This document shows positions 3,648 through 39,839 of a stretch of DNA of 64,000 bases, one piece after another. Positions within the stretch are counted from its first letter, which is position 1, and each line of letters begins with the position of its first letter. Source of the DNA: Candidatus Uhrbacteria bacterium (lineage in GTDB: Bacteria > Patescibacteriota > Patescibacteriia > UBA9934). The position numbers and the translations under genes were made by a program. The stretch lies in assembly GCA_943354605.1 (NCBI GenBank), contig CALRCK010000002.1, positions 71,186-135,185 of the forward strand, in the 5' to 3' direction. The notes below the pieces were generated by a model. That model saw nothing but the letters and a program-made list of their open reading frames with translations. It ran no database searches and had not been told where the DNA came from.

Positions 3648-4772
3648 TTATTGTGTAAGAGGATCAGCAGCTGGAGCCGCGGATTGTGGGTCAGCAATCG
3701 ACGATGGCATCGAGGCTTGCATCAGCGCAGTCGTAATAGCGGTTTCTGCATCGGCGAGCGTTGCCTCAATACCTCGGAGTACCGTGTCTGCGTGCTTCAG
3801 CGTGTCGAATGCGGATCGATATCCACCCATCGCGAAGGTGTCCATTGCCGGTGCAACATCGGCAACAGCGATATTAATACTTCGCTCAAGACGATACAGA
3901 TCCGTGTCGGTCATAATTCCCGACGCGCCGAGAACATCCGTATGAGCCTCCAGCGATGCTCGGATCACGGCGATGCGGTGCATATCGAACGTTTTGCGCG
4001 TACCAATAGCAGCAAACTGACGGAGGAACATATCATTCAACTCACGCGTAGACTGTTCAGAATTCTCGTCATTATGTGCTTCCACTGCAACCGTGACGCT
4101 ATCGTCTTGAGCAACCTGGGTTGTCGTTTGTGCAGACGTGACCGCTGCCGATTCTTCCGACGATGCTGCTGGGCCAACGGAATTCGTAATGGTGGAATCG
4201 AGCGCAACGAGATTCTGCTGCACCTCGCTTGCCGTTGCCACGGTTGTTGAATTTCCAGAAGCCTGCAACTCCCGAAGGTTTTGATTTGCAGACGCGACTT
4301 CCTGTGTATACGCATCGATGGTTTGTGCAACGAGATTCGTATCGCGACCCGATGTATCTGATTGTAACTTTGCAACTTCCTTCAACCGCGTCTCAGCGAA
4401 TTCGGTATGCAGCACCGCCTTGCGATCGAGCGACGCGAGCTGAAGTTGTGCACGCTCATTAATAAGCTTCACTGTGTACAGCACATCGCCAGGCAAACTC
4501 TGCTGCGCGGCGTTCACTGTGGTCATCAATCCGCTCACTGCAAGAACGAATCCTGCGACACCAACGGCAACTGGACGCGAAATAAATGATTGTGAAAGCC
4601 AGAGAACGTATCGTGTTTTCAAATTCACCGCTGGATCGGTGGAAGGCACAGAAATATCTGCGCCAATTGCCAGCATCAATGATCGCTTTGCCGCAATCTG
4701 TGCATCAACAGAAAAACCTCCGGCGGATGGTCGGCTTTTTGCGGCGCGGAGTTGTGCGGCAATCTTATTCAT
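3648..4772 (-). CDS. Membrane-anchored anti-sigma-factor-like protein (DUF5667-like architecture: cytoplasmic N-terminus, one TM helix, extracytoplasmic coiled-coil/Ser-Thr-rich domain)
   Basis: 374-aa ORF whose ATG overlaps the stop of the upstream ECF sigma gene (ATGA overlap at 4769-4772). Single hydrophobic segment YVLWLSQSFISRPVAVGVAGFVLAVSGLMTTV. Position immediately downstream of a sigma-70/ECF gene is typical of anti-sigma factors. Confidence 0.55.
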   Translation of the reverse strand: MNKIAAQLRAAKSRPSAGGFSVDAQIAAKRSLMLAIGADISVPSTDPAVNLKTRYVLWLSQSFISRPVAVGVAGFVLAVSGLMTTVNAAQQSLPGDVLYTVKLINERAQLQLASLDRKAVLHTEFAETRLKEVAKLQSDTSGRDTNLVAQTIDAYTQEVASANQNLRELQASGNSTTVATASEVQQNLVALDSTITNSVGPAASSEESAAVTSAQTTTQVAQDDSVTVAVEAHNDENSEQSTRELNDMFLRQFAAIGTRKTFDMHRIAVIRASLEAHTDVLGASGIMTDTDLYRLERSINIAVADVAPAMDTFAMGGYRSAFDTLKHADTVLRGIEATLADAETAITTALMQASMPSSIADPQSAAPAADPLTQ

Positions 4773-5308
4773 AGCGTATCTTTTCCGATCTTTTCTTGAA
4801 GCGCCTTCTTTGCTCGGTGCAAGAGCACCCGAACGCTGTTGGACGTCTTCTCTAAAGCAGACGCGATTTCCCCTACTTCCATTTCACTCAGGTAACGCAT
4901 GACCAGGACTTCGCGATATTCATCCTTTATTCCCCGAAGTGATGCAATGAGATCATCACTTTCGATCTTCGTCGCGATTTCTTCTGAAACCGAGACGCCA
5001 CTGTCTTTTTCCGATGCCGAGTCCAACGCCTCGGTCACCTTGTACTTCCGATAGAAGTCGGCGACCAAGTTTCGAGCAATGCGGAAGAAGAATGCGTTGA
5101 GGTTGTTTACCGCGCCACTCGTCATGTATTCCCAGCCGCGGAGAAAGACTTCTCCCGTCAGCTCATCTGCATCCTCGTTTCGCGGAAGCTTGAACGCCAG
5201 AAAGCGTCGGATGCGGTCCGCAAACATGTCGTAGATTTCGCCGTACGCCGCGCTGTCCTGATGGCGGTACACGCGGAAGGCAAGGAATTTTTCCCGAAGT
5301 GTTGACAT
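4769..5308 (-). CDS. ECF-type RNA polymerase sigma factor (sigma-70 regions 2 and 4)
   Basis: 179-aa ORF starting at ATG 5308. Region-2-like FLRGWEYMTSGAVNNLNAFFFRIARNLVADFYRK and region-4 HTH-like EVLVMRYLSEMEVGEIASALEKTSNSVRVLLHRAKKAL. Confidence 0.85.
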   Translation of the reverse strand: MSTLREKFLAFRVYRHQDSAAYGEIYDMFADRIRRFLAFKLPRNEDADELTGEVFLRGWEYMTSGAVNNLNAFFFRIARNLVADFYRKYKVTEALDSASEKDSGVSVSEEIATKIESDDLIASLRGIKDEYREVLVMRYLSEMEVGEIASALEKTSNSVRVLLHRAKKALQEKIGKDTL

Positions 5309-5528: not shown

Positions 5529-5777
5529 ATGGAAGATGCTTCCATTCGCCTCTCTGTTTCCGAAGCTGCAAAATTCTTTGGCGTGAGTCCACGAACCATT
5601 CGAAGGGCGATTACGGATAAAGCCGTGGAATATATCGTGGTCCAAAACCGCTACAAGATCGACCTCGCCTCACTGCTCGACTGGGCAGACAAGACAACAA
5701 CCGTTCGCCACAAGCTGGCAAAAGACGGCATTGGTCAGTTCGTGAACAAGTGGAAGATTCCCACTGAACGCACTTAG
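5529..5777 (+). CDS. Small helix-turn-helix DNA-binding protein (excisionase/MerR-like HTH)
   Basis: 82 aa with ATG start. Motif SVSEAAKFFGVSPRTIRRAI is typical of Xis/MerR-family HTH. Only 3 nt separate it from the next gene. Confidence 0.55.
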   Translation: MEDASIRLSVSEAAKFFGVSPRTIRRAITDKAVEYIVVQNRYKIDLASLLDWADKTTTVRHKLAKDGIGQFVNKWKIPTERT

Positions 5778-5780: not shown

Positions 5781-6992
5781 ATGGAGCCGCTCGACGCCCC
5801 ATTATTTAAGACGTTCCAAACCCTTCCAGCATTTCCATTTGCAAACCTCGTTCGCCAAAACCGTGCAGCTGCCCGTGTCGCTCGAGATACGTTCATCGCC
5901 GATCGCACAACACCAACGTTCATCTATCATCGTCTCGATCGTTTTGATGATGTCGAATACCTCGTGGCGCTTCGCTCGGTTCACGATCGTATCGCATCGA
6001 TTCCCGTCGCCGAGGACATTCGAACGCTCTACCTCGAAAAGCTCGCCGAGCTCACTACGCGTGCTCAGATTATTGCCGCAATAAAACGAAAGGACGACGC
6101 CGCAGTTTCTGCTCTCGCCGATCATCTTTTCGGACCGTGCGTACAAACACGCGCCGAACTTGCCGATGAATTCACCACACTCCTCGCACGGTCGCATGAA
6201 TTGCACACTCATCACAATCGCGTTGATGCCGCCGCATTCGAACGCATGGTTCGCGCAACGCTCGATCATTACGGCATGACCAACTGGACCACGCGATTCA
6301 TCAACCGCCCGAGCGTCTCGGTTTCACGCGGTGATTCGCTGAACCGAGCACCAACCGTCAAAATTCCAAAACACTTTCTGGCCTCTCGCGCTCGCGCTGC
6401 GCGACTACTCACCCACGAAATTGAGGTTCACGCATTGCGAACCACAAACGGTGCGACCTCGCCGATCTTGCTCCTCGGACGAGGACTCGCCGGATATATC
6501 GCTACCGATGAAGGGCTTGCCGTTGCAATGCAACAAAAACTCAAAGCCGAAGAATCGATGGATCCTGGTTTCTGGGATGCATGGGTTGCAGCGCTATCAA
6601 AAGAAGCAGACTTTCAATCGTGCTTCGAAACAATCCGCGATGCTCGACGAAAACTCAACATTGCACTCAACATCGAAAACGCCGACGAAGAAGCGTTCGA
6701 CACTGCGTGGCGTCTCATGCTTCGCGTATCCCGCGGTATTCATCATCCAAATACCGCCGGCCTCGGCTTCCGCCGTGACCATCTCTATCGATCCGGTCTC
6801 ATTCAGGTACGGCAAGCCATCGATACGTTTGGCGAATCAGAAATTCTTCCAACGCTCTTCGCCGGGCACGCAAGCATTGCGCATATCCCGCTCCTTCGAG
6901 CAAAACACATCACCGGCCGAACTCCAGACTTCGTCAGCAAAGACATCGTTAAGACTGTCTTGCGTGCAGAAAAGCAAAGGCGCACACTCTGA
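5781..6992 (+). CDS. DUF1704-family putative zinc metallopeptidase (HExxH; QEGLA-motif / MATCAP-like family)
   Basis: 403 aa. HEIEVHAL (HExxH) and TDEGLAVAMQQ (QEGLA-like) motifs. Family assignment comes from motif memory, not a search. Confidence 0.45.
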   Translation: MEPLDAPLFKTFQTLPAFPFANLVRQNRAAARVARDTFIADRTTPTFIYHRLDRFDDVEYLVALRSVHDRIASIPVAEDIRTLYLEKLAELTTRAQIIAAIKRKDDAAVSALADHLFGPCVQTRAELADEFTTLLARSHELHTHHNRVDAAAFERMVRATLDHYGMTNWTTRFINRPSVSVSRGDSLNRAPTVKIPKHFLASRARAARLLTHEIEVHALRTTNGATSPILLLGRGLAGYIATDEGLAVAMQQKLKAEESMDPGFWDAWVAALSKEADFQSCFETIRDARRKLNIALNIENADEEAFDTAWRLMLRVSRGIHHPNTAGLGFRRDHLYRSGLIQVRQAIDTFGESEILPTLFAGHASIAHIPLLRAKHITGRTPDFVSKDIVKTVLRAEKQRRTL

Positions 6993-6997: not shown

Positions 6998-7729
6998 ATG
7001 AACAACCCGATCGTAAAAATCGCAGCCGGAGCGATCGTCGTCATCGCTGTTGGATTGCTACTCTTCCTTTTCCTTCCGAAAGCAGCAACAGAAACCCCAA
7101 CAGCAACGCCAAAAACATCGCAGTCATCGTCAACATCAACGCCTATCACGCAAACGTCGTCGATCTACGAAACCAGTGAACTCGCCCTCACCGTTCCAAA
7201 AGACTGGACCGCGACAGAAGCAACGCAAGACGGAACTGCAAATCCCTCCGCAGTAAACATCACCAAGGGCGAATGGATTCTATTCATCAACGTAGATGCA
7301 AACCAGGCAAGTGGTGTGACGGGCGGACGGTTCGCAGAAATTGGTATAGGAGCACCAAGTGTGGATGCCGTTGTCCTCGAACAACCAAGCGAGTGCGGGA
7401 AGGCGAAATCAACTCCAACATTTGGAGCATTCTCGCGTGTTGATCTTTCCGTGAGCGCGGCAGATGCACAACAGTGGTGCTCAGTGCCGACCAATGGAAA
7501 AACCGTTTGGTTCTTCTCCTATCTCACAAAGACTGGTGTTGGCGGATATTTCAACGACTACGTTACCGATCAAAATCCCGCGCTTGTCGTGACGATGGCG
7601 TATCAAACGTCGGTCATCAGCGATTCGCACACCGTGAACGACCTTCCAGAAATGGGAAGCGCCGACCTCAGCGCCGCATTAAAAACGATGACAGACATCG
7701 CCTCAACACTCACCATCAAAAATCACTAA
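6998..7729 (+). CDS. Membrane-anchored hypothetical protein (N-terminal TM helix, Thr/Ser-rich linker, extracytoplasmic domain)
   Basis: 243 aa. Hydrophobic segment IAAGAIVVIAVGLLLFLFL. Tightly follows the DUF1704 gene (5-nt gap). Confidence 0.55.
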   Translation: MNNPIVKIAAGAIVVIAVGLLLFLFLPKAATETPTATPKTSQSSSTSTPITQTSSIYETSELALTVPKDWTATEATQDGTANPSAVNITKGEWILFINVDANQASGVTGGRFAEIGIGAPSVDAVVLEQPSECGKAKSTPTFGAFSRVDLSVSAADAQQWCSVPTNGKTVWFFSYLTKTGVGGYFNDYVTDQNPALVVTMAYQTSVISDSHTVNDLPEMGSADLSAALKTMTDIASTLTIKNH

Positions 7730-7741
7730 ATTCATGCAACA

Positions 7742-7775
7742 CAAAACCGAGTCTCTTCAGACTCGGTTTTGTGTT
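7742..7775. terminator. Rho-independent terminator-like hairpin (AAAACCGAGTCT cttc AGACTCGGTTTT)
   Basis: Perfect 12-bp inverted repeat flanked by A/T runs, between convergent genes ending at 7729 and 7910. Confidence 0.6.
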
Positions 7776-7784
7776 ACGACCAGG

Positions 7785-7900
7785 AGTTTCACATTTGTGG
7801 CGAGTTTGGGTGCGCGACGAGGAAAGCTCGCGAGACGTACTTCATGTGTACGTTGAGCGAGTTTCCGATGGCGCAAGCCAAAAATCGGCCAAATAAGGAA
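7785..7900 (+). repeat. R1 palindromic dispersed element, copy a (~110 bp; core ...GCAAAGTTCGCGAGACGTACTTC..GTACGTTGAGCGAATTTGC...AAAATCGGCCAAA)
   Basis: Aligned by eye to at least 10 other copies in the window. Internal dyad symmetry around ACGTAC. Confidence 0.7.
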
Positions 7901-7909
7901 GTCCTGCCG

Positions 7910-9070
7910 TTAACGGACCGCAAACACTCCCTGACGAACCATCGCGTGGCGGCGATAAAGCGCAGCAGTTTCCTGCGCAATATCGTCCCAGTGATATTCG
8001 TCTTCCACAAACGTTCGCGCGGCATGACCGATTGCCGCAGCCTGCATCGGATCCTTTGCGAGATCGATAATGCAATCCGCAAGTGTTTCGACATCGCCTT
8101 GAGGAAACGGCACGCCGTAGTCGCTAATCACTTCCATGGTTTCAGGAATGTCGGCAGCAATAACGGCCTTTCCGTGACTCATTTCTTCAAGCACCGCGAT
8201 GGGCAATCCTTCACTGGTGGAAGGATGCACCATAAATCGCGCACCAGAGAACAACGCCGTGAGCGTGTCGCCACGCTGGAAACCGGTGAAGACAATGGAA
8301 TCATCGTACGACGCCATTGCGTGGAGTTTCCGAACATACGCGTCGGTAAATGCACTGCCACCAACAATCGCGAGCTTCATGCCTTTCATCACGTCAGGCT
8401 GTTGCTTGCACGCCAACTGCCATGCAGCGATCAGCGTGTGTGCTCCCTTGTGCGGAACCAAGCGCGCGATCATCGCCACATAATGGAACGGCTCCAAACC
8501 AAATGGCGACAAGAGCAATGGCTCAACAGATGTGCGTACCGGCGTAATGCCGTTTGGAATATACGTTGCACGTCGACCGTATTCCTGTTCTCCGTACTTG
8601 GTGAGTGTTTTGCTCACCGTGATGGTTTCGTCTGCAAACGCGAATGCGGCACGTTCGCCAAGACGAAGCGCAAGACGCGAAAACATTCCCCATTTTTCGT
8701 GGGTACGATCGATAGAGTGGAACGTGGTAACCACCGTTGCTCGTGGAGCAAGCATTCGAGGAATCCACGCCAAAAGCGATGGGCCGACGCCATGAAAATG
8801 ATAGACATCTGGACGGACGAAAATCGCCGCATGAAGTACCGCAAACAACGACGCCGTAATGGTATCGAGGTGTTTGGTGCGGATGCTTGGCGTGCGAACC
8901 ACGCGAATCCCGTTCACGCGATCGGCCCCCTTCGGGACGTACCACGTACGGCCATACACCGTGACCGTATGGCCAAGGCGCATGAGGCGGGTTGCAAGCT
9001 CAACAACGTGGGTTTCCACGCCGCCAAACTGTGCCGGAATCCCTTTCTGTCCAATCATGGCAATTTTCAT
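7910..9070 (-). CDS. GT4-family glycosyltransferase
   Basis: ORF 7910-9109 begins with a TTG codon. A likelier ATG start is at 9070 (MKIAMIGQKGIPAQFGGVETHV...). C-terminal EGLPIAVLEEMSHGKAVI matches the GT4 E-x7-E region. Confidence 0.8.
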   Translation of the reverse strand: MKIAMIGQKGIPAQFGGVETHVVELATRLMRLGHTVTVYGRTWYVPKGADRVNGIRVVRTPSIRTKHLDTITASLFAVLHAAIFVRPDVYHFHGVGPSLLAWIPRMLAPRATVVTTFHSIDRTHEKWGMFSRLALRLGERAAFAFADETITVSKTLTKYGEQEYGRRATYIPNGITPVRTSVEPLLLSPFGLEPFHYVAMIARLVPHKGAHTLIAAWQLACKQQPDVMKGMKLAIVGGSAFTDAYVRKLHAMASYDDSIVFTGFQRGDTLTALFSGARFMVHPSTSEGLPIAVLEEMSHGKAVIAADIPETMEVISDYGVPFPQGDVETLADCIIDLAKDPMQAAAIGHAARTFVEDEYHWDDIAQETAALYRRHAMVRQGVFAVR

Positions 9071-9139
9071 AAGACCGAGTATCGTATCAGTTTTTGGCCA
9101 TTTGGTCAACGAAAAACGGGAGGGAAAATAAAAAAGTTG

Positions 9140-10429: not shown

Positions 10430-10462
10430 AAAATTATTCTTCACGAAGACCTCGTCCGTCAT

Positions 10463-10546
10463 TCTGAGCGAAGCGAAGAATCTCCGTCGGGATCAGATCC
10501 TGATAACCTGCGAGAGATTCTTCGCTTCGCTCAGAATGACTGATGC
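10463..10546. repeat. R2 perfect palindromic element GTCATTCTGAGCGAAGCGAAGAATCTC ... GAGAGATTCTTCGCTTCGCTCAGAATGAC
   Basis: 27-bp perfect inverted arms around a 30-bp spacer. Related copies at 22748-22835 and (degenerate) 32165-32270. Confidence 0.7.
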
Positions 10547-15301: not shown

Positions 15302-15482
15302 GAGAGTCTCTCCGAGGGTGACACGGCCCGTGCTTTTGCTAAGCGCGGGTTGTGGCAGAAGTGAAACTTTCGCTTCACTGCTCGCACAATTCTGTGTCCA
15401 TTCCTATAAAATCTTGACCGAGTATTGTAGCAAAAATTTGGAACTTTGTCAATGATCAAAGCTCGGTTCGAGCCGACGAGAA

Positions 15483-15598
15483 CGGTTTTATTTGCGACGA
15501 GTTTGGACGCGCTTCGAGCAAAGTTCGCGAGGCGTACTTCTCGGTACGTTGAGCGAATTTGCGAAGAAGCAAGTTCAAAATCGGCCAAATAAAACTGT
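15483..15598 (+). repeat. R1 palindromic element, copy b
   Basis: ...GAGTTTGGACGCGCTTCGAGCAAAGTTCGCGAGGCGTACTTCTCGGTACGTTGAGCGAATTTGCGAAGAAGCAAGTTCAAAATCGGCCAAAT... Confidence 0.7.
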
Positions 15599-15719
15599 TC
15601 TCAAAAGCGAACACCCCGGGCGACCGCTTCACTCCCCCGTAGTTGGGAAGGAAGGGTCGCACCGGGGTGCGCGTGGTTGCCGCGTTCACCCACACGGCAG
15701 GTCGGGCTGGGGAGCCCTA

Positions 15720-16352
15720 CTAGTACGTGTGGCAAGCCGTGTCGGGCGGGGCGAAGCTTCCGCCGAGCGGGCTCACCACACCGTTCTCGACCATGAACGA
15801 CCAGTTGACGTCCGTGCGGTAGCCGCTCGAGTCGTAGCCGGTCATGCCCGCGCAATCGGGGCTGCCGTTCACGATCGTGGCGAGGTAGCGCGAGTCGTCG
15901 TTGGTCGTGAGGCCCTCGAGCGCCTGGCAGAAGCCGTTCTGCGTGTACGGAGTCGCGGACGTGAGCCCGCAGGTGATCTCGTACATGCCGTCGCGGATGC
16001 CGGTGGCGCCGTAGCCGACGACCTCGCCCGTCGAGTTGGTCAGCTCGGGGAGCGGGAGGAAGGCGGTCTCCCAGCCGAACTCCGCGTCGTTGTACTCCTC
16101 CGAGCCGAAGCCGAAGGTGGAGTAGCTCTGGCCCGAGGCGTTCACCGGCATGGTGGCGCTGAAGAACCAGGCGACGCTGGCGCCCACGTCCGTCTGCCCG
16201 AAGGCGTAGGACTGGTTGCCGTAGTCCGAGATGCCGTTGCCGTCGAGGTCGTCGATGGCCACGATCTCCTGGACTTCGCCGCCCGAGACGTCGGGGCCGG
16301 AGGAGTAGGTGGAGCAGGCGGGGAGGATGGTGAAGAGCGCGATGAGGATCAT
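15720..16352 (-). CDS. High-GC lipoprotein, hypothetical
   Basis: ORF runs to 16466. Probable start is ATG 16352 (MILIALFTILPACSTYSSG), preceded by GGAGACACAGTC. Lipobox LPAC. Confidence 0.65.
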   Translation of the reverse strand: MILIALFTILPACSTYSSGPDVSGGEVQEIVAIDDLDGNGISDYGNQSYAFGQTDVGASVAWFFSATMPVNASGQSYSTFGFGSEEYNDAEFGWETAFLPLPELTNSTGEVVGYGATGIRDGMYEITCGLTSATPYTQNGFCQALEGLTTNDDSRYLATIVNGSPDCAGMTGYDSSGYRTDVNWSFMVENGVVSPLGGSFAPPDTACHTY

Positions 16353-16502
16353 GACTGTGTCTCCGAACGGGTGGAAGAAGGCCGGGGGTTCCCGGCGACT
16401 CGGGTTGCGAGCCACCTGGATGTCCAGGCCTTGGCAGAAGTGAAGGATTTCCTTCACTGCTTGCAAGGACTGGCTTACAGGACTTCCTCATTTTGACTAT
16501 TT

Positions 16503-16612
16503 TCGGCTTGCTCGTCGCACATTCGCTCAACGTACCGAGAAGTACGCCTCGCGAACTGTGATCCTCGCGCACCGAAACTAGCCTAAAATGAGAAAGTTCT
16601 GTGTAAAACTCA
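16503..16612 (-). repeat. R1 palindromic element, copy c (inverse orientation)
   Basis: TATTTTCGGCTTGCTCGTCGCACATTCGCTCAACGTACCGAGAAGTACGCCTCGCGAACTGTG...CGAAACTAGCC. Confidence 0.7.
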
Positions 16613-16837
16613 TGTTCAATTGTGAACCAAGTACTATAGCAAGAATTTGAAGTTTTGTCAATGATTGAGGTTCATCAATCATTCATTTTGCTGCAAATGC
16701 TCTTGTATTGAGAAGCGTCGCGAACGGCCGGGGGAATCGAGGCTTGTGGCCCCTATCCCCCAGCCGAACCGTTGCGTGGTCACCGTGTCCTTGCCCGTCA
16801 GCCCCACTTCGACATGGGGCCTACTAGGGCGAAGGAA

Positions 16838-22711: not shown

Positions 22712-22747
22712 AAATCACCATTAGTGTATCATGATTCAAGCGTCATT

Positions 22748-22835
22748 ATCCGTCCAAAAATCATATTCAGTCATTCTGAGCGAAGCGAAGAATCTCGTGT
22801 AGGTTATCCGGATCACCTGCGAGAGATCCTTCACT
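22748..22835. repeat. R2 palindromic element, copy 2
   Basis: GTCATTCTGAGCGAAGCGAAGAATCTC...GAGAGATCCTTCACTTCGTTCAGGATGAC. Confidence 0.65.
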
Positions 22836-22871
22836 TCGTTCAGGATGACTCAAGCGGATGCAACTATTCAT

Positions 22872-23347: not shown

Positions 23348-23746
23348 GGGCCTGACGGGCTTCGATGCTCTTCGGATCCTCACAAATCACGCCGGAAGGG
23401 CACCATATTCCGAAATCCCGTGGTGCAACGAGATACTTGCAAACGCATTCTCAAAGGTGAAGGCAGCTATCGCTTCGGCGTTCAGCGTTCCTTCATTCTC
23501 ATTGGTTACCGCCTAAGGGCCGCAACCCATCCACTTCGCAATGCCTCATAGCGGATGTTGGGTGCAATATTATGAGACTATAGGCGTTCTCTTGTTCGCT
23601 CAGAGAACGTAACCCGTTGCAGCGAAATCGTTATGATGATTCTTGTTCCGTCTTATCGTCATGCCGTATCCGACGGAACTGCGCGTGGAATAAATTTGTT
23701 TGGTGATGTGGGGTAGACGGGAGTTCAACTCTCCCCAGGTCCACCA
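23348..23746 (+). ncRNA. ssrA: tmRNA (ssrA)
   Basis: Lies directly downstream of smpB. The 5' GGGCCUG pairs with the 3' CAGGUCC-A-CCA to give a 7-bp acceptor stem with G3·U70 (alanine identity). T-arm GGGAGTTCAACTCTCCC. 5' region GGGCCTGACGGGCTTCGATG resembles the tmRNA consensus. The tag reading frame was not resolved. Confidence 0.75.
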
Positions 23747-23777
23747 GAAAACCCCGTAATTTCGTCCAGGACGTTGT

Positions 23778-23872
23778 CAGAAAACTCCGCGTTGCCTCAA
23801 CGTACCACGACGTACGTCTCGGCGACTGCTCGTTTTCTTCCTAGTCCTGAACAAAATTACGGGGTTTTCTCA
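23778..23872 (-). repeat. R1 palindromic element, copy d (degenerate), between tmRNA and the infC start
   Basis: ...GCCTCAACGTACCACGACGTACGTCTCGGCGACTGCTCG... Confidence 0.5.
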
Positions 23873-23947
23873 TCATATCGCTCCCATCAGCTCCTTCCCT
23901 TTTTTCGAATCTTAAGCTATCCTTTCAGCAACTTTAACCCTACTGCC

Positions 23948-24505
23948 ATGCGCATTCACCGCCATCGTCGGTTCCAGAAACCGAAGTTCGAAATTCAGGA
24001 ATATAAGGCAAACCACAATATTCTCGCCCCGGAAGTGCGAGTTATTGACGACGAAGGCGCCGCACTCGGTGTAATGACGACCACGAAGGCGATTAGCCTT
24101 GCCCAGGAGAAAGGCATGGATCTTATTGAGGTTTCGCCATTGGCCGAGCCACCAGTCTGTAAGTTTGCCGACTACAGCCACTTCAAATACCAAAAGGAAA
24201 AGGAGATGCGAAAGCAGCGCGCCCAAAGCAAAGAGGTGGAAATCAAGGGTATTCGCCTTTCCATGCGCATCGGCTCCGGCGACCTGCAGATCCGCGTGGA
24301 ACAGGCCGCGAAATTCTTTGAACAAGGCGATAAAGTAAAAGTGGAAATGATCCTTCGTGGCCGCGAACGCGCCCATGGCGACGTGGCTCGAGCCGTCTTT
24401 GATGAATTTGTGAAGCAGCTCGGAACCCATTACCCAATTCGCGTTGAAAGCCCATTAAAGGCCGTGGACGGAAGGATGAACATGATTTTAGCTCGACAGA
24501 CCTAA
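23948..24505 (+). CDS. infC: Translation initiation factor IF-3
   Basis: From ATG 23948: MRIHRHRRFQ...NHNILAPEVRVIDDEGAALGVMTTTKAISLAQEKGMDLIEVSPLAEPPVCKF... The listed ORF 23774-24505 extends upstream through the R1 copy. Confidence 0.85.
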   Translation: MRIHRHRRFQKPKFEIQEYKANHNILAPEVRVIDDEGAALGVMTTTKAISLAQEKGMDLIEVSPLAEPPVCKFADYSHFKYQKEKEMRKQRAQSKEVEIKGIRLSMRIGSGDLQIRVEQAAKFFEQGDKVKVEMILRGRERAHGDVARAVFDEFVKQLGTHYPIRVESPLKAVDGRMNMILARQT

Positions 24506-24575: not shown

Positions 24576-24776
24576 ATGGCAATGAAGACCCACAAAGCGA
24601 TGTCCAAGCGCGTTCGAATCACCCGAACGGGCAAAGTCGTGAAGCGAAAAGCTGGCCAAGGCCACTTCAATTCCCGCGAATCCGGCAACACCACGCGCAA
24701 CAAGCGCACCGACGTCTCCTTTGGCGTCACCATCCGTCGCGCCCTTAAAGCGATGATGCCATATAACTTGACCTAA
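24576..24776 (+). CDS. rpmI: 50S ribosomal protein L35
   Basis: MAMKTHKAMSKRVRITRTGKVVKRKAGQGHFNSRESG... Confidence 0.9.
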   Translation: MAMKTHKAMSKRVRITRTGKVVKRKAGQGHFNSRESGNTTRNKRTDVSFGVTIRRALKAMMPYNLT

Positions 24777-24782
24777 AAAACT

Positions 24783-24892
24783 TCGCTCTTTGGCCGATTT
24801 TCGACTCAGATCATCGGAAACTTCCTCAACGTACATATGAGGTACGCCTCGGAAGCTTTCCTCGATCTTCGTCGAAACTCGTCTCAAATATC
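24783..24892 (-). repeat. R1 palindromic element, copy e, in the rpmI-rplT spacer
   Basis: TTTGGCCGATTTTCGACTCAGATCATCGGAAACTTCCTCAACGTACATATGAGGTACGCCTCGGAAGC... Confidence 0.6.
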
Positions 24893-24915
24893 AAAGTTTT
24901 TATCAATTCTCTCCT

Positions 24916-25260
24916 ATGCCACGCGTCAAACGAGGTACCCAACACACAAAACGCCGAAAGAACCTGCTTGCTCGCGTAAAAGGCTATAAGTGGGGCCGCA
25001 AGAGCAAGATCCGTCTTGCCCGCCCGGCAATGCTCAAGGCTGGTGTATACGCATTCCGCGACCGCCGTGCCAAGAAGCGCACCTTCCGCGCCCTTTGGAC
25101 GGTAAAGATCAACGCAGCAGTGCACGAACTCGGCCTGAGCTACTCCCGGCTCATCAACATGCTCAAGGTGTCCAATATCGCCATCGACCGCAAGATTCTT
25201 GCCCAGGTTGCAGAAAAGCACCCAGAAGTGTTCGCAAAGATTGTTGCAGCAGCAAAATAA
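24916..25260 (+). CDS. rplT: 50S ribosomal protein L20
   Basis: MPRVKRGTQHTKRRKNLLARVKGYKWGRKSKIRLARPAMLKAGVYAFRDRRAKKR... Confidence 0.9.
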   Translation: MPRVKRGTQHTKRRKNLLARVKGYKWGRKSKIRLARPAMLKAGVYAFRDRRAKKRTFRALWTVKINAAVHELGLSYSRLINMLKVSNIAIDRKILAQVAEKHPEVFAKIVAAAK

Positions 25261-26321: not shown

Positions 26322-26398
26322 TGGCGGGACGGACGGGACTCGAACCCGCAACCTCTGCCGTGACAGGGCAGCGCTCTAACCAGTTGAGCTACCGACCC
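26322..26398 (-). tRNA. tRNA-Asp (GTC), CCA encoded
   Basis: Reverse complement is GGGTCGGTAGCTCAACTGGTTAGAGCGCTGCCCTGTCACGGCAGAGGTTGCGGGTTCGAGTCCCGTCCGTCCCGCCA. Anticodon loop CTGTCAC. T-arm identical to E. coli tRNA-Asp. Acceptor pair 4-69 is U·U. Confidence 0.8.
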
Positions 26399-26412
26399 AG
26401 GGTGAACGTCCC

Positions 26413-26512
26413 TATTTGGGGTATTTTCGGCTTGCTGCGTCAAAAATTTGCTCACCGTACCAAGAAAGTACGCCTCGCAAATTTTCTCCTAGCGCACCGA
26501 AACTACCCGCAA
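26413..26512 (-). repeat. R1 palindromic element, copy f, adjacent to the tRNA-Asp 5' side
   Basis: TATTTTCGGCTTGCTGCGTCAAAAATTTGCTCACCGTACCAAGAAAGTACGCCTCGCAAATTTTCTCCTAGCGCACCGAAACTACC. Confidence 0.6.
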
Positions 26513-26601
26513 ATATGAACGTTCACAGAAATTCCTGAGCGCGAGTATAGTACCACGCAGAATTTTTTTGACAAGGACGGGGACTGTGCGAAAATGCAGA
26601 T

Positions 26602-27591
26602 ATGGAACCGTCGAAACATCCTGCAATATTCATTATTGTGCTCATCGCGCTGGGCATTGGAATTGGCGTCACCATTTCTTGGCTCCTTTTCCGGCCAAAC
26701 GCCATTGACACCGGGCATACGTTACGCTTAACCGACCCCAACTACCCGCTCATCAAACCGCTCCTGGCGTGCAACATCGATAGCACAACACCAACAAAAA
26801 CGCTCGACCCATTACAATCATCGCTTCAAGACGCGGTGGATCGCGCGACTGCCGCAGGAGACATCACTCGTGCAGGAATCTATATACGAAAACTCTCCGA
26901 TGGCACCTGGACCGCAGTACACGGCGACGACGAATACAGTCCCGCAAGTCTCATGAAAATCGTGACACTCTTCGTGTATCTTCACGATGCGGACAATGAT
27001 CCTTCCGTCCTTGATCGCGTTCTTGTTGTCGATCCAACCATCAACACGGGGACGCAAAATATCATCCCAACATCAACAGCCATTCCAGGAAAACGCTACA
27101 CCGTCAATGAGCTCCTCCGATACATGATTGTGAATTCAGACAACGTCGCAACGCTTACGTTGGTACACAATACGCAAAACGATGAACTGAATACACTGTT
27201 AAATGATTTGGAAATTCCCGGATATTTAGACGAAGAAAATTTCACCATATCCCCAAGACACTACTCTCGATTTCTCCGCATTCTGTACAACAGCACTTTG
27301 CTGAGCGAAAAATCCTCAGAATTTGCCTTGGAATTGCTCGCGGCGAGCGACTACCGTGATGCGCTCGTCCAAGGAATTGCCCCACAAGAAACCACTGCTC
27401 ACAAATTTGGCGAACGTGGCATCACAAATGCTGACGGTTCAAAATCGTATCAACTCCACGACTGCGGAATTGTCTATGCACTAGAGCCGTATATGCTATG
27501 CATCATGACCGAAGGGAACGACCTACCCACGCTCGCGAACACCATTGCCTCGTTCACGACGATCGTTGATACATTCATCAATACCTACTGA
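26602..27591 (+). CDS. Class A beta-lactamase-family serine hydrolase (paralog 1)
   Basis: PASLMKIVTL (S-x-x-K), NSDNVAT (SDN) and HKFGE (KTG-like). N-terminal TM anchor. Confidence 0.65.
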   Translation: MEPSKHPAIFIIVLIALGIGIGVTISWLLFRPNAIDTGHTLRLTDPNYPLIKPLLACNIDSTTPTKTLDPLQSSLQDAVDRATAAGDITRAGIYIRKLSDGTWTAVHGDDEYSPASLMKIVTLFVYLHDADNDPSVLDRVLVVDPTINTGTQNIIPTSTAIPGKRYTVNELLRYMIVNSDNVATLTLVHNTQNDELNTLLNDLEIPGYLDEENFTISPRHYSRFLRILYNSTLLSEKSSEFALELLAASDYRDALVQGIAPQETTAHKFGERGITNADGSKSYQLHDCGIVYALEPYMLCIMTEGNDLPTLANTIASFTTIVDTFINTY

Positions 27592-27621: not shown

Positions 27622-28641
27622 ATGTTAAATCACTGCAAAAATACAGCCATGATTTCAACACGACACACTGTACTCATCGTTTGTACAACAGCAATATTCG
27701 GCTTTTGTTTTGGTGTTGGAGCCAGTTTGTGGTTCTCCTCTTTAACAAGCGCCGACAAAACTGGTCACACGCTTCGGATTAAAAATCTGAGCTATCCCCT
27801 CATCAAACCCCTCCTTGCCTGCAATATCGACGCACAAACTCCTACACCCGCCTTGAACGACCTTCAATCACTACTTAAAAAAGCCATCGACACTGCAACA
27901 GAAAGCGGTAACATCGCCAAAGCAGGAATATATATTCGTGATTTGGACGACGGGTCATGGACGTCGGTGAATGGCGATGATCGGTACACTCCCGCGAGCC
28001 TCATGAAAATCGTGACGCTGATGGGATATTTAAACGAAGCCGAAAACAATCCATCGATCCTTCAAAACAGGCTCACAGTGGATCCGGATCTCGACGTCAC
28101 AAAACAAAATATCATTCCCGCACTCTCGGCCGAGCCAGGAAAAGAATACACCGTCGCGGAGCTTCTCCAGATGATGATTGCGTATTCAGACAATACCGCT
28201 TCACACACGCTTATTGAACATATGAGAGCTGAATCACTGAACGGTCTTCTTGACGTTTTGGAAATTCCAACATTTGCGGACGAAGCGCATTATACAATCT
28301 CGCCGCGCCTCTACTCACGGCTCCTGAGAATTCTTTACAATAGCACACTACTGACGGCCTCAGATTCCGAACGTGCACTCGAACTTCTCGCACAAACCGA
28401 TTATCGCGAAGCACTCGTCAAAGGCGTAGATGCCTCAGAAACCGTCGCACACAAATTTGGCGATGTCACACTCCTCAACTCCGACGGAACAACGTCCTAC
28501 CAACACCATGATTGCGGGATTGTTTATGCAACACATCCATACGTTATCTGCATCATGACCGAAGGGAACGACTTACCAACGCTCGCGAACACCATTGCCT
28601 CGTTCACGACGATCGTTGATACGTTTATGAACGATCGGTAA
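27622..28641 (+). CDS. Class A beta-lactamase-family serine hydrolase (paralog 2, tandem duplicate)
   Basis: Same motifs (PASLMKIVTL, YSDNTAS, HKFGD). The last ~90 nt are nearly identical to paralog 1. Confidence 0.65.
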   Translation: MLNHCKNTAMISTRHTVLIVCTTAIFGFCFGVGASLWFSSLTSADKTGHTLRIKNLSYPLIKPLLACNIDAQTPTPALNDLQSLLKKAIDTATESGNIAKAGIYIRDLDDGSWTSVNGDDRYTPASLMKIVTLMGYLNEAENNPSILQNRLTVDPDLDVTKQNIIPALSAEPGKEYTVAELLQMMIAYSDNTASHTLIEHMRAESLNGLLDVLEIPTFADEAHYTISPRLYSRLLRILYNSTLLTASDSERALELLAQTDYREALVKGVDASETVAHKFGDVTLLNSDGTTSYQHHDCGIVYATHPYVICIMTEGNDLPTLANTIASFTTIVDTFMNDR

Positions 28642-31656: not shown

Positions 31657-31690
31657 CATACTGGATCCCCGCCTGCGCGGGGATGACTCA
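31657..31690. repeat. R3 REP-like hairpin GGATCCCCGCCTGCGCGGGGATGACTCA. Other copies at 36193-36226 and 52660-52696.
   Basis: GCGGGGATGA / TCATCCCCGC perfect stem. Three near-identical copies, all in short intergenic gaps of minus-strand operons. Confidence 0.65.
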
Positions 31691-31695
31691 AAGAG

Positions 31696-36135: not shown

Positions 36136-36192
36136 AACTCGAACAGAATTATAACATAGGAGAATCGAGCCTCGGGTCATCTACGCACCTCC

Positions 36193-36226
36193 CTCAGTCA
36201 TCCCCGCCTGCGCGGGGATGACTGAG
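36193..36226. repeat. R3 REP-like hairpin, copy 2 (AGTCATCCCCGCCTGCGCGGGGATGACTGA)
   Basis: Perfect inverted repeat. Confidence 0.65.
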
Positions 36227-36264
36227 GGAAAAAGGGGATGACTGAAAAATGACAAAAAGAAATT

Positions 36265-38767: not shown

Positions 38768-38769
38768 TT

Positions 38770-38872
38770 TCACCTCACTCGTCGAAAACTTCCTCACCGT
38801 ACCAATGAAGTACGCCTCGGAAGATTTTCTCCTCCTTCGGCGAAACTGGTCTAAAATAGATCAGCCACGTTT
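38770..38872 (-). repeat. R1 palindromic element, copy g
   Basis: ...CTTCCTCACCGTACCAATGAAGTACGCCTCGGAAGATTTTCTCC... Confidence 0.55.
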
Positions 38873-39838: not shown

Positions 39839-39839
39839 A

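Follow-up and report, generated by a model that had tools for sequence, protein, structure and literature searches.

What is the palindromic sequence, here called R1, that recurs along this stretch of DNA, how does it spread, and is it a peculiarity of a single genome? The window (the whole stretch of DNA analysed, 64 kb in length) belongs to the CPR/Patescibacteria, whose genomes, approximately 1 Mb in size, are regarded as streamlined and as containing little mobile DNA. The original prediction, made from the sequence alone, had counted at least 11 dispersed palindromic copies, had read them as a mobile element, and had considered such an element unusual in a reduced genome.

Copies of R1 and their folded structure

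By iterative nhmmer searches and a covariance-model (CM) scan with the filters off, 11 full-length copies of R1 of 124-129 nt each were found in the 64-kb window (Table 1). Both methods returned the same 11 copies in identical orientations and none beyond them, and these are exactly the copies that had been predicted, with the right orientations. The density is approximately 1 per 5.8 kb, where about 1 per 6 kb had been estimated, and R1 makes up approximately 2% of the window. The predicted coordinates were right within about 10-20 nt; the element itself is about 12 nt longer at either end, and the predicted consensus missed these parts because the sequence of the outer stem varies although its pairing is kept. 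In the CM alignment, all copies are full length. Their sense strands score 75-131 bits, compared with 34-45 bits for the antisense strands and 25 bits for the best unrelated hairpin in the window. A weak R1-like fragment at 63062-63111 (nhmmer E ~0.01) is without CM support.

With the exception of the copy in pth, the copies are located in intergenic spacers, in many cases directly against a stop codon, a tRNA or the tmRNA. As had been proposed, one fills the tRNA-Leu/tRNA-Val spacer (ARAGORN and junction sequences), one lies in the rpmI-rplT spacer flush with the rpmI stop codon, two flank tRNA-Asp and the tmRNA at distances of 3 nt and 0 nt, and others abut the stop codons of lytR, der and the 3240-aa ORF. 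The copy that had been assigned to infC is indeed upstream of this gene, 77 nt before its ATG, and not inside it. Among the matches listed from all genomes, 6 of 130 pattern-selected elements are flush with a tRNA (8 element-tRNA adjacencies); the tmRNA next to copy 4 and a copy upstream of tRNA-Met in the related genome L121 are further neighbours of this type. Specific targeting of tRNA genes was considered and set aside: the association is suggestive, yet survival in neutral spacers could explain it, and by our estimate it is not significant in the window alone.

Table 1. Positions of the R1 copies and of neighbouring features in the 64-kb window.
Feature	Position	Strand	CM score (bits)	Fold (kcal/mol)	Context
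R1 copy 1	7781-7905	+	121	-65.7	Convergent; between terminator hairpin 7738-7775 of + gene 6998-7729 and stop of - strand GT4 glycosyltransferase 7910-9109 (Pfam)
R1 copy 2	15478-15602	+	130	-72.4	Brackets the next ORF together with copy 3, in inverted orientation
ORF	~15601-16476	-			No Pfam hit
R1 copy 3	16477-16602	-	129.5	-64.8	Directly downstream of consensus sigma70-like promoter repeat 16626-16665 (-)
tmRNA	23348-23746				Rfam
R1 copy 4	23747-23870	-	75		Divergent subfamily; 0 nt past tmRNA CCA end; antisense to tmRNA and infC; end 77 nt upstream of infC ATG (23948; IF3 Pfam domains)
R1 copy 5	24776-24901	-	117.5		Flush with rpmI stop codon; fills spacer rpmI (24576-24776)/rplT (24916-25260; L35, L20 Pfam hits); within infC-rpmI-rplT operon, antisense to transcription
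tRNA-Asp	26322-26398	-			ARAGORN
R1 copy 6	26402-26526	-	120		3 nt upstream of tRNA-Asp, same orientation
R1 copy 7	38744-38870	-	113		Sense; between stop of TSP3-repeat gene 38878-39702 (-) and ATG (38743) of next TSP3-repeat gene (Pfam)
R1 copy 8	39716-39840	+	124		Antisense; last base overlaps stop codon of 3240-aa ORF (39840-49562, -); 13 nt from ATG (39702) of next gene
pth (peptidyl-tRNA hydrolase)	58654-59346	-			230 aa including 42-aa stretch encoded by copy 9
R1 copy 9	59200-59325	-	113		Inside pth; palindrome proper 59199-59327
der (engA)	59336-60739	-			467 aa; Pfam; P0001 100% identical, 467 aa; start placed via alignments; flanked by copies 9 and 10
R1 copy 10	60770-60895	+	125		Between lytR and der; antisense; final 3 nt are the lytR stop codon; end 30 nt upstream of der ATG
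tRNA-Leu	62486-62571				ARAGORN
R1 copy 11	62573-62697	-	131		Fills tRNA-Leu/tRNA-Val spacer
tRNA-Val	62703-62779				ARAGORN

Folding the copies, a check that the original prediction had proposed, yielded a single long hairpin for each of them, with RNA minimum free energies of -56 to -72 kcal/mol. The conserved part of R1 is the hairpin tip, CGAGRCGTAC-loop-GTACGKTGAG, which contains tandem G.A and G.U pairs. Written as RNA (5'-CGAG-GRCGUAC-loop-GUACGKU-UGAG-3'), it has two G.U pairs and tandem sheared G.A/A.G pairs beneath its end; a purine-rich G-GA/GA-C internal loop is a second shared motif. The strict 26-27 nt tip pattern matches 8 of the 11 window copies, where shuffles give an expectation of 0. 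At the other extreme, the outer stem and termini are the most variable part of the element, and the outermost 10-14 nt are the least conserved. Between recently inserted copies, the outer stems are nearly unrelated in sequence, yet they are complementary. When 17 CPR copies were aligned without fitting them to a structure, 93.2% of the cells paired, and changes on both sides were observed in 25 of 42 pairs, amounting to 115 cells. Shuffles gave 32+/-5 cells, with 0 of 500 attaining the observed count, and slid partners gave 15-31. With the tip masked, the sense strand is the more stable one in 24 of 27 arm clusters among the matches listed (p = 5e-5), because of its purine-rich loops. The G.U pairs do not cause this strand asymmetry, since their counts are equal once the tip is masked (342 vs 346).

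The copies are not parts of one longer gene-proximal sequence, an outcome that had been named in advance as contrary to the mobile-element reading, and R1 matched no Rfam or Pfam entry. In the window, Rfam at the gathering threshold matched only the tmRNA and the tRNAs and nothing on R1, and at a permissive E-value one window copy and one Nitrospira copy had no match on the element. Translated R1 frames had no Pfam match, BLAST against plasmids and phages returned no match, and R1 was not found in 2.9 million viral contigs. Nothing marks out the peptide that had been read from one frame: of the 66 frames of all copies together, 15 are open, as by chance, and no conserved peptide is apparent. 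From reading the sequences, several known motifs were also considered and rejected, namely group II intron domain V, the sarcin-ricin loop, the K-turn, SRP RNA, the dif/Xer site, attC, the CsrA-binding GGA motif and an oriT nic site (ATCCTG in Nitrospira ends); each resembles R1 in part, and none does so in all subfamilies.

Recent insertions and the pth allele

By comparing the window with its relatives, the mobile-element reading could be examined at individual sites. In L121 and L122, genomes whose Der is 91% identical, the lytR-der, der-pth and tRNA-Leu/tRNA-Val spacers are 28, 4 and 1 nt long; copies 10, 9 and 11 are therefore absent there, and copies 9 and 10 are likewise missing from L123, L124 and L125. 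Conversely, L121 has two copies of its own (4651-4776 and 5544-5667) at sites that are empty in the window, where the lepB-hisS spacer is 27 nt long and the stretch from pth to tRNA-Met is without a copy. Consequently, R1 occupancy differs at 5 sites between the window and a genome with 91% identical Der, and these differences, which run both ways, bear out the mobile-element reading. At the tRNA-Leu/Val site of L123 (Der 76% identical), a 33-nt mini-hairpin of R1-like termini is present, which from its sequence could be an old insertion later deleted. The comparison indicates that R1 copies were very recently gained, or precisely lost, gains being not always distinguishable from precise losses. 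The empty sites in the relatives are free of hairpins (pth codons 3-7; 1-nt tRNA spacer), and the whole palindrome, including the outer stem, therefore arrived with the element.

The placement of the copies also appears to be tolerant in direction. In tandem gene contexts, 15 copies are sense and 23 antisense, and relative to GC skew the numbers are 41 and 46; there is no bias in either case, and from these sequences R1 inserts in either orientation. The survivors are only at low-harm sites, that is, in spacers of a few nucleotides, beside tRNAs or the tmRNA and, in a single case, in frame close to the 5' end of pth.

The pth gene is generally essential in bacteria. Within it, copy 9 is an exact 126-nt (42-codon), in-frame and stop-free insertion behind codon 7. 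The empty allele in L125 reads ATG GCG ACT AAC GTT ACC CTT/ATT GTT, and the filled allele in the window reads ATG GCG ATT GAT CCT AAA TTG (126 nt) ATT GTT. In 12 relatives with at least 90% identity, Pth is 188 aa or 194 aa long, compared with 230 aa in the window. The prediction of an in-frame copy inside pth, behaving like a Rickettsia palindromic element (RPE), is thus borne out, and the comparison with relatives that had been proposed as a check shows that they lack the insertion. A start codon downstream of the copy had been raised as an objection. The ancestral start is upstream of it: pth begins at the ATG 59346-59344 and shares 11 nt with the end of der, as it also does in the relatives. 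The 230-aa Pth is present in public annotations, and the Pfam domain PF01195 begins at residue 78 of the long ORF. A comparison with L121 alone had suggested that the insertion destroyed the pth ATG, but the closer relatives show the ancestral ATG intact and the element inside the ORF.

The inner stem of copy 9 is a variant that, together with a +2-nt indel, marks a subfamily to which a copy in another genome (L071:5014-5141, L071b) also belongs. This indel was considered as a frame-restoring mutation; L071b has the same indel, which is therefore a subfamily trait. In addition, this subfamily is without the canonical tandem G.A beside the tip, and since copy 9 is a recent insertion despite this loss, the motif is not strictly required.

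No target-site duplication (TSD) is evident at the filled/empty junctions of pth, lytR-der, tRNA-Leu/Val and lepB-hisS or around the L121 copy upstream of tRNA-Met, diverged intergenic flanks limiting the resolution except at pth and the tRNA site. At pth, the only flanking repeat is ATTG, which is incompatible with the reading frame as a TSD. No conserved target tetranucleotide was seen at the junctions, and no GTAG or CGTC tag is evident when the hairpin ends are read from the sequences. No transposase, recombinase or reverse transcriptase was found in the window (Pfam, 45 ORFs). Near the 120 listed loci described below, clustering of 777 ORFs in a search for a linked mobiliser yielded only generic families. 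A parent IS or transposase with matching ends was found neither in the window nor within 8 kb of the 120 listed members, and a Y1 gene is likewise absent from both.

Tip-capped hairpins in other phyla

A scan with the tip pattern returned at least 120 loci, compared with approximately 9 expected by simple arithmetic. At the listed loci, the tip is the centre of a long hairpin, and among the matches listed, the arms fall into 27 clusters whose mutual sequence similarity is undetectable. Hairpins of approximately 110-130 nt, capped by the tip and built from unrelated but complementary arms, thus occur in at least 7 phyla (Nitrospirota, Geobacter/Desulfobacterota, Acidobacteriota, Methylomirabilota, Planctomycetota, Bacillota and Patescibacteria). 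The element is consequently not a peculiarity of one reduced genome, since the same tip and architecture recur in all of these phyla. A CM built from CPR copies only aligns with Nitrospira, Geobacter and other copies over model positions 1-126 (119-128 nt, 30-64 bits); the Geobacter-type copies L088 and L113:6479-6598 score 44.8 and 29.7 bits, respectively. For 89 elements among the matches listed, 88.6% of the cells pair, compared with 37-44% when partners are slid, and both-side changes occur in 34 of 42 pairs. The traits of the superfamily are the tip, a purine-rich loop, a near-constant length and arms that are free to vary if complementary. As judged from these alignments, R1 is the Patescibacteria (CPR) branch of a cross-phylum superfamily that has no Rfam or Pfam entry.

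Part of this superfamily has been recorded before. In Geobacter metallireducens, 24 unnamed "predicted short RNA elements" were reported in 2009, with the alignment in Additional file 4 (PMC2700814). These Gmet_R10xx elements are intergenic and multicopy, are 111-115 nt long, and have the central palindrome GRCGTAGC..GCTACGCC; two copies carry a GCGTACC..GGTACGC centre, and one copy is at the same dapAB-dapL locus in two species (PMC2700814). They agree with R1 in the rod that they form and in its arm motifs (GCAAGGUCAAGGCG / CAACGCAGAGAUUGCGG), and they are co-transcribed inside operons (dapAB-dapL); unlike R1, they have other arm sequences and mostly a GTAG-type tip. The length, the central palindrome GRCGTA(G/C)..(G/C)TACGYY and the internal-loop architecture are shared by both. 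An HMM built from the Gmet elements matches L113 (E = 5e-24) and L088 (E = 4e-6), and the tip of L088 is the canonical CGAGGCGTAC..GTACGTTGAG. As published, the Gmet elements were unnamed and were presented without structure, mobility or cross-phylum distribution (PMC2700814). Literature searches with sequence strings and for Nitrospira and CPR returned no earlier description besides this Geobacter genome paper, and no follow-up was found. The dapAB-dapL copy in two species hints that some copies are retained over long periods. Cultured hosts include Geobacter hydrogenophilus DSM 13691, Geobacter sp. OR-1 and Nitrospira sp. BLG_1, in addition to G. metallireducens and G. sulfurreducens (PMC2700814). 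Because cultured, genetically tractable hosts carry the family, the question of recognition and movement is directly testable.

Mode of mobility and comparison with known systems

Based on the results presented above, R1 is probably a non-autonomous mobile DNA element of approximately 125 nt that functions as a single strand folded into a rod-like hairpin. Its movement would depend on an enzyme that acts in trans from a gene elsewhere in the genome, and this enzyme may read the folded tip on one specific strand and not terminal inverted repeats (TIRs). We infer these two steps, because the searches did not identify the mobilising enzyme. Since propagation would require an intact hairpin, copy lineages would evolve by compensatory changes. 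Because they lie inside operons, many copies would be co-transcribed and form very stable RNA hairpins (-56 to -72 kcal/mol), which probably affect mRNA and tRNA processing and stability as a side effect (compare REP, ERIC and Correia elements). It is worth noting that G.U and tandem G.A pairs, both conserved here, are classic motifs of RNA, and they would be as compatible with an RNA function or an RNA intermediate as with single-stranded DNA. A wider reading, which we put forward tentatively as a possibility, is that R1 represents a previously unrecognised ancient mobile element or mobile structured RNA, whose identity lies in the folded apical motif (G.U/G.A tip and purine-rich loops on a rod of approximately 125 nt) and not in the ends, and which is moved by a broadly conserved factor in at least 7 phyla, the ultra-small genomes of the CPR among them. 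If this were true, R1 would move by a transposition or retro-mobility mechanism that is new, and in the transcripts of its host the hairpin would at the same time act as an RNA element.

The same motifs might instead belong to a functional structured RNA family, cis-acting or processed (e.g., RNase-processing or stability determinants, protein decoys or tRNA-maturation spacers), in which each locus is kept by selection, a conserved RNA-binding protein reads the G.A/G.U tip, and multiplication is secondary. The tandem G.A and G.U tip and purine-rich loops on one strand across phyla, the constant length, the plentiful compensatory changes and the many copies co-transcribed within operons or tRNA clusters are all consistent with this, as is the Geobacter record, whose authors annotated predicted RNAs with the same dapAB-dapL position in two species (PMC2700814). 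We nevertheless regard it as unlikely: both orientations occur without bias, and therefore approximately half of the copies would be transcribed as the weaker, motif-less strand, the differing occupancy of 5 sites at 91% Der identity is unlike locus-specific regulators, one copy is inside the coding sequence of pth, and no Rfam family matches. If the sense-strand RNA hairpin were copied into DNA by a host or intron reverse transcriptase, in a retro-mobile, SINE-like manner, the conservation of RNA-type motifs (G.U, tandem G.A) on one strand only and the transcription of many copies within operons would be accommodated. However, 5' truncations, A-tails and target-primed signatures are lacking, practically every copy being full length, no reverse transcriptase gene was found in the window or near copies, and to our knowledge SINE-like retro-mobility is without precedent in bacteria, all of which makes this route very unlikely.

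A specific version of the preferred explanation, a mobile single-stranded hairpin, is movement of the REP/REPIN or IS200/IS605 type, in which a domesticated HUH Y1 transposase (RAYT/TnpA) from a single genomic gene moves the ssDNA hairpin. In agreement with it, the hairpin measures approximately 100-125 nt and shows compensatory changes, a classical TSD is missing, most copies lack a linked transposase, and loss may be precise (1-nt tRNA spacer in L121). The inverted organisation of R1, with an invariant centre and variable ends, speaks against it, as do the lack of an evident GTAG/CGTC tag, of a conserved target tetranucleotide and of a Y1 gene in the window or near the 120 listed loci; IS608-type lagging-strand targeting is further disfavoured by the even distribution relative to the GC-skew proxy. 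This version is thus quite unlikely. The original prediction had likened R1 to a Correia-like MITE, that is, in the classical form, an IS deletion derivative with TIRs and a fixed-length TSD moved by a DDE transposase. Small size, lack of coding capacity, many copies, intergenic location and an overall inverted repeat agree with this label, but it fails on the variable termini, the outermost 10-14 nt differing almost wholly between recent insertions, on the lack of a detectable TSD at the junctions examined, and on the lack of a related transposase or IS sharing the ends in the window or at the listed loci. A classical MITE is therefore largely refuted and highly improbable. It could also be argued that nothing here is mobile and that the copies are intrinsic terminators, pre-existing hairpins with an inserted core, or products of local palindrome amplification, given that the stems of two genuine terminators in the window, AGAACCGA...TCGGTTCT, resemble the R1 outer stems and that Nitrospira-type copies have an A-run and a T-run flanking the stem. 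Window-type copies, however, have a T-run 5' of the stem and no U-tract behind it, and copies are located inside operons upstream of rplT, der and pth, so they are not efficient terminators. Insertion into pre-existing terminator hairpins was likewise rejected, only two terminators with a AGAACCGA stem being present in the window and the empty sites being free of hairpins. These empty sites in the relatives contradict the immobile view as a whole and leave it barely tenable.

As an actively moving element, R1 would make up approximately 2% of a 64-kb stretch in a CPR genome, having squeezed into a 1-nt gap between two tRNAs, into the junctions of overlapping or tightly packed genes of operons, and into pth. 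Its logic of variable ends, an invariant folded tip and no TSD would be outside the transposase-and-TIR paradigm. In addition, such repeats yield spurious ORFs and N-terminal extensions in annotation (the 230-aa pth product and extended infC, der and copA-like ORFs), and they may break metagenome assemblies.

Intrinsic (Rho-independent) terminators, GC-rich hairpins at operon ends with a U-tract directly behind them, differ from R1, whose window copies have no T-run behind the stem on either strand and in several cases lie within operons. Integron attC sites have R''/R' (RYYYAAC / GTTRRRY) at the base, a variable tip and cassette arrays of one orientation, whereas in R1 the base is variable, the tip is conserved, and both orientations occur beside der, pth, rplT and tRNAs. 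MITEs are small, non-coding, multicopy and intergenic with an inverted-repeat layout (PMC10969869). R1 is likewise small, non-coding, multicopy and mobile (124-129 nt, 11 copies, polymorphism both ways), but in place of conserved TIRs its termini pair and are the least conserved columns. The Correia elements (CREE/NEMIS) of Neisseria are abundant, approximately 100-200 bp long, often gene-adjacent and co-transcribed, and their long RNA hairpins are cut by RNase III. Their 26-bp TIRs are conserved and their insertions show a TA duplication; IHF sites and promoters are present as well. R1, in contrast, has variable ends and lacks a TSD.

ERIC/IRU elements, which Hulton et al. reportedly described in 1991 as imperfect palindromes of approximately 126-127 bp with the central inverted repeat best conserved, occur in Enterobacteriaceae and Vibrionaceae, mostly in intergenic and occasionally in intragenic positions; they are transcribed with their neighbours and influence mRNA stability via RNases. 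R1 is similar in being an intergenic imperfect palindrome of approximately 126 bp with a conserved centre, and its co-transcription is deduced from operon positions. There is no sequence similarity, as blastn of R1 against 5,426 complete genomes of E. coli, an ERIC carrier, returned no match. ERIC is confined to two gamma-proteobacterial families, and its copies are largely static, unlike the recent and polymorphic insertions of R1. RPEs are palindromic repeats of approximately 100-150 bp that likewise populate a reduced genome; no transposase is known for them, and they are located in frame in housekeeping genes and in intergenic regions. The in-frame, non-disrupting insertion of 42 codons in pth resembles them; on the other hand, intragenic positions, frequent among RPEs, account for only 1 of the 11 copies in the window, and R1 has no conserved encoded peptide, another sequence and another phylum, so far as RPEs are set apart by their description. 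A cross-phylum tip has not been reported for RPE families.

REPINs are REP doublets of approximately 100 nt that are extragenic, form ssDNA or mRNA hairpins, and are mobilised by RAYTs, with structure-dependent transposition having been proposed (Bertels & Rainey 2011, PMC3116915). Compensatory changes keep their hairpin, there is no classical TIR/TSD logic, and invariant ends (16-mers/REPs) enclose a variable central spacer (PMC3116915). R1 resembles them in that its hairpin is kept by compensatory substitutions (25 of 42 pairs, 93% of cells pair), but its layout is the reverse, the centre being invariant and the ends variable in place of conserved ends. Furthermore, REP sequences are lineage-specific, whereas the tip of R1 is conserved across phyla.

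Copy number, fold and placement of R1

R1, a palindromic repeat of about 125 nt, was picked up in pieces by a repeat search of the window (families D9, D10 and D12-D14). An HMM built from the 11 intervals of the original prediction matched the same 11 (E 1e-17 to 1e-37) together with one weak fragment, and an unfiltered covariance model (CM) search over the whole window recovered exactly 11 copies, with scores of 75-131 bits against 25 bits for the best unrelated hairpin. The number and orientations of the dispersed copies originally claimed are therefore right, and the palindromic consensus proposed for them is real; however, it is too short by about 12 nt per side, because the sequence of the outer stem varies between copies, with its pairing always kept. 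R1 makes up about 2% of the window, at one copy per 5.8 kb, and each of the 11 copies forms one hairpin of about 125 nt (-56 to -72 kcal/mol).

The hairpin is supported by covariation. When 17 CPR copies were aligned with MAFFT, with no structure imposed on the alignment, standard pairs made up 93.2% of cells, and two-sided changes occurred at 25 of the 42 pairs in 115 cells, compared with 32+/-5 cells in 500 shuffles (0/500 reach 115) and 15-31 cells with slid partners. Conservation is lowest in the outermost stem columns and highest at the tip, the apical stem-loop. Thermodynamics favour the sense strand, which bears the tip motif, in 96 of 110 elements; masking the tip leaves this preference intact in 24 of 27 independent clusters (p = 5e-5). 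The source of this asymmetry is the purine-rich non-canonical loops, not the G.U counts (342 vs 346). On the window copies, the CM scores 75-131 bits in sense versus 34-45 bits in antisense; the information thus resides in one particular single strand. The conserved G.U and tandem G.A pairs are typical of RNA but possible in ssDNA too.

Names of Der homologues, and of the loci L065 and L076 that match the tip pattern, place the host among Patescibacteria (CPR), near Uhrbacteria. Flanking genes identified with Pfam, ARAGORN and Rfam place R1 copies exactly at gene boundaries (Table). No U-tract follows any window copy, and several copies are operon-internal, upstream of rplT, der and pth; a role as terminators was therefore rejected.

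The window also contains a second palindromic family, unrelated to R1, in which GTCATTCTGAGCGAAGCGAAGAATCTC is followed by its inverted complement. Its two copies form hairpins of about 65-110 nt, both flagged by the R1 CM as generic hairpins, and its 'ATTCTGAGCGAAGCGAAGAATC' core resembles repeats of many other bacteria. Further features of the window, including a third small repeat and a promoter repeat, are listed in the Table.

Table. Placement of R1 copies, related loci and other features (window positions unless a locus of another genome is named)
Feature	Coordinates	Strand	Description
R1 copy 4			directly after tmRNA CCA end; ends 77 nt before infC ATG
R1 copy 5			begins at rpmI stop codon; occupies whole rpmI-rplT spacer
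R1 copy 6			3 nt upstream of tRNA-Asp
R1 copy 8			overlaps stop of 3240-aa ORF
R1 copy 9, insert in pth	59200-59325		between codon 7 and ATT GTT GG
R1 copy 10			final 3 nt = lytR stop codon
R1 copy 11			occupies tRNA-Leu/tRNA-Val spacer
infC over-extension	23774-24505		243 aa vs true length about 185 aa
der over-extension	60763		TTG start inside copy 10, upstream of der
copA-like ATPase over-extension	L071:5044-7308		
Mini-hairpin	L123:8246-8278		33 nt, tRNA-Leu/tRNA-Val spacer
tRNA-flush family member	L074:5138-5261		upstream of tRNA-Asp
tRNA-flush family member	L065:7143-7265		fills tRNA-Ile/tRNA-Phe spacer
tRNA-flush family member	L080:1671-1794		upstream of tRNA-Leu
tRNA-flush family member	L055:5691-5808		upstream of tRNA-Leu
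tRNA-flush family member	L121:4654-4779		upstream of tRNA-Met
Second palindromic family	10433-10546, 22745-22855		two copies
Third repeat, GC-rich hairpin GTCATCCCCGCCTGCGCGGGGATGAC	31661-31701, 36190-36229, 52664-52704		all three intergenic; 18-bp perfect stem at 36190-36229
Promoter repeat (family D16)	9074-9113, 15417-15456, 16626-16665	-	consensus sigma70-type (TTGACA-17 nt-TACAAT); 68-83% mutual identity; two adjoin R1 copies 2 and 3
GC-rich islands	12.2-16.3 kb, 54.0-55.7 kb		~64% GC in 52% GC genome; highly repetitive Cys/Asp-rich proteins, MopE-type metal-binding repeats (PF11617, 9 repeats)
Neighbouring genes	38.0-39.7 kb		bacterial TSP3 repeats
Giant 3240-aa ORF	39840-49562	-	immediately upstream of R1 copy 8
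Tandem paralogues	26602-27591, 27622-28641		beta-lactamase-like / D-Ala-D-Ala carboxypeptidase-like; common 149-nt stretch, 83% identity
MATCAP ORF	5781-6992	+	Pfam match to microtubule-associated tyrosine carboxypeptidase family, E = 5e-26, in CPR bacterium

Occupancy in relatives and the copy within pth

Relatives were obtained through Der and Pth homologues, and synteny of the lytR-der-pth-tRNA-Met-lepB-hisS block is kept in them. In L121 and L122, two relatives whose Der is 91% identical, the lytR-der, der-pth and tRNA-Leu/tRNA-Val spacers measure 28, 4 and 1 nt, so window copies 10, 9 and 11, respectively, are absent; copies 9 and 10 are also missing from the relatives L123, L124 and L125. 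Conversely, L121 has its own copies between pth and tRNA-Met, an interval that is copy-free in the window, and in the lepB-hisS interval, which in the window is a 27-nt spacer. The window and this close relative thus differ in occupancy five times in about 7 kb, in both directions, as expected of the mobile element originally proposed. These differences mean recent gain, precise loss, or both. Since the empty sites hold no hairpin, the whole palindrome, including its variable outer stem, moves with the element. At the tRNA-Leu/tRNA-Val site, where the window has a copy and L121 has none, L123 (Der 76% identical) carries a mini-hairpin of R1-like outer termini only, TAGAACGTTCC-AGCCATG-GGACGTTCTA plus TTCAT, which could be a footprint or an internal-deletion remnant. 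Elsewhere, five family members lie flush with tRNA genes (Table), which suggests that the element either prefers tRNA flanks or survives at them.

In the Pth-domain ORF of the window, 77 open codons precede the domain. A displaced start codon, first suggested by the L121 comparison, was ruled out by the closest relatives. The 12 other members of the 90%-identity Pth cluster are 188 aa long, except for one of 194 aa; the relatives' Pth begins MATNV(T/M)LIVGLGNPG, and its ATG overlaps the der end by 11 nt. This ancestral ATG is retained in the window (ATGGCGATTGA), which, compared with L125 (about 82% nucleotide identity), has exactly 126 extra nt, or 42 codons with no stop, and public annotations call the same 230-aa product. 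The in-frame copy inside pth that had been predicted is therefore present here and missing from the relatives, and the predicted likeness to Rickettsia palindromic elements (RPEs) is borne out in this behaviour. The insertion need not mean coding selection: chance leaves 15 of the 66 frames across R1 copies open, and the 2-nt indel holding the pth frame open is a trait of the copy-9 subfamily, common to L071:5014-5141. Pth is encoded by a generally essential gene, and the simplest reading of copy 9 is survivorship: only an in-frame, stop-free, near-N-terminal insertion persists there. A separate consequence of R1 often being stop-free is that ORF finders run genes through copies, a systematic artefact in element-rich genomes (over-extensions in the Table).

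A superfamily across phyla and its prior record

The tip pattern CGAGRCGTAC-N6-7-GTACGKTGAG, which in its strict form matches 8 of the 11 window copies (shuffles expect none), was scanned in one genome per bacterial and archaeal species. At least 120 loci were found, against about 9 expected by chance from simple arithmetic over 596 Gb. Among the matches listed, most loci are Nitrospirota; the others are from Geobacter and other Desulfobacterota, Syntrophales, Acidobacteriota/Terriglobia, Methylomirabilota/Rokubacteria, Planctomycetota, Bacillota/Clostridia, Saccharimonadia, Uhrbacteria and other Patescibacteria. Matches occur in isolates (among these Nitrospira sp. BLG_1, Geobacter hydrogenophilus DSM 13691 and Geobacter sp. 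OR-1) and on megabase contigs.

In non-CPR loci a sequence-only HMM detects just a 40-nt core, which is the tip of a long hairpin, and with the tip masked the arms of the matches listed split into 27 clusters without detectable similarity. Representatives nevertheless have a modular rod in common: a tip stem GRCGUAC/GUACGKU with two G.U pairs, closed by tandem G.A/A.G, and below it a helix of about 5-12 bp, often an AA/GCA loop, a G-GA/GA-C motif, an AA/GCN loop and a long outer stem. A CM trained on CPR copies alone aligns with Nitrospira, Geobacter and further elements across all 126 model positions (119-128 nt, 30-64 bits, E 1e-9 to 1e-4), and adds copies missed by the tip pattern, one with a compensatory change within the tip. 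In an 89-element alignment, which is model-fitted so that its figures lean towards the structure, 88.6% of cells pair versus 37-44% with slid partners, and two-sided changes occur at 34 of 42 pairs versus at most 21. Hence, with the same tip and rod in non-CPR phyla, the element is not lineage-specific. Arm GC follows host composition (about 47-53% in CPR, 57-64% in Nitrospira), which favours a long residence within the individual lineages over recent horizontal transfer.

Five tip-scan loci (L049, L071, L074, L080 and L035) come from TPA records titled 'uncultured Gammaproteobacteria', and some of the bins concerned are apparently Patescibacteria with the wrong label. L074 shows synteny with window 30.3-33.7 kb (50-78% amino-acid identity), window-type R1 copies occur in L049 and L071, the assembly of L049 is also the source of L080, and the L035 element is of the L074 type.

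No Rfam 15 family matches R1, no Pfam family matches its translated frames, and literature searches by sequence and keyword returned nothing on R1 for Nitrospira or CPR. Elements with the central palindrome GRCGTAGCGCTGCTACGCC were described in 2009 as 'predicted short RNA elements' (Gmet_R10xx) of G. metallireducens, and also occur in G. sulfurreducens (GSU0160.1, co-transcribed, dapAB-dapL), G. uraniireducens and Desulfotalea (PMC2700814). These Gmet sequences fold into the R1-type rod, and in 6 of 7 the strand equivalent to R1 sense is the more stable; an HMM built from them matches tip-scan loci L113 (E = 5e-24) and L088 (E = 4e-6), the latter with the canonical GTAC tip. The superfamily had thus been noticed once before, in Geobacter, unnamed and uncharacterised; no follow-up literature on these elements was found.

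Possible mode of propagation

Based on the results presented above, R1 is probably a non-autonomous hairpin element whose propagation depends on structure, with the folded tip rather than the ends as the recognition determinant. No transposase, integrase or RT is present among the 45 window ORFs, and no mobiliser was found there or among the neighbours of the 120 listed loci, the recurrent ones being generic families (sensor kinases, ABC-F, PilZ, HtrA and others). The tip has no match in 2.9 million viral contigs, nor the element in plasmid, phage and E. coli collections. R1 may be propagated in trans, with a single-stranded folded form as intermediate and the tip, not the termini, being recognised; any influence of the RNA hairpin on host transcripts would be incidental.

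Other explanations fit less well. Mobile, palindromic and RPE-like were apt terms for R1 in the original prediction, but a MITE with terminal inverted repeats and target-site duplications was rejected, as the outermost stem is the least conserved part and no duplication is evident at the filled/empty junctions compared. If R1 were an RNA with a locus-specific function, an orientation bias relative to flanking genes might be anticipated; however, tandem contexts are unbiased (15 sense vs 23 antisense), occupancy turns over fast and one copy is intragenic. Convergent contexts (22) outnumber divergent ones (7). The lack of orientation bias relative to GC skew (41 vs 46) argues against lagging-strand targeting of the IS608 type.

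That this structure-dependent propagation represents a genuinely new mobility mechanism seems unlikely. The closest analogues of R1 are ERIC, which has the same architecture and no homology, and REPINs, whose conservation pattern is the inverse of that of R1.
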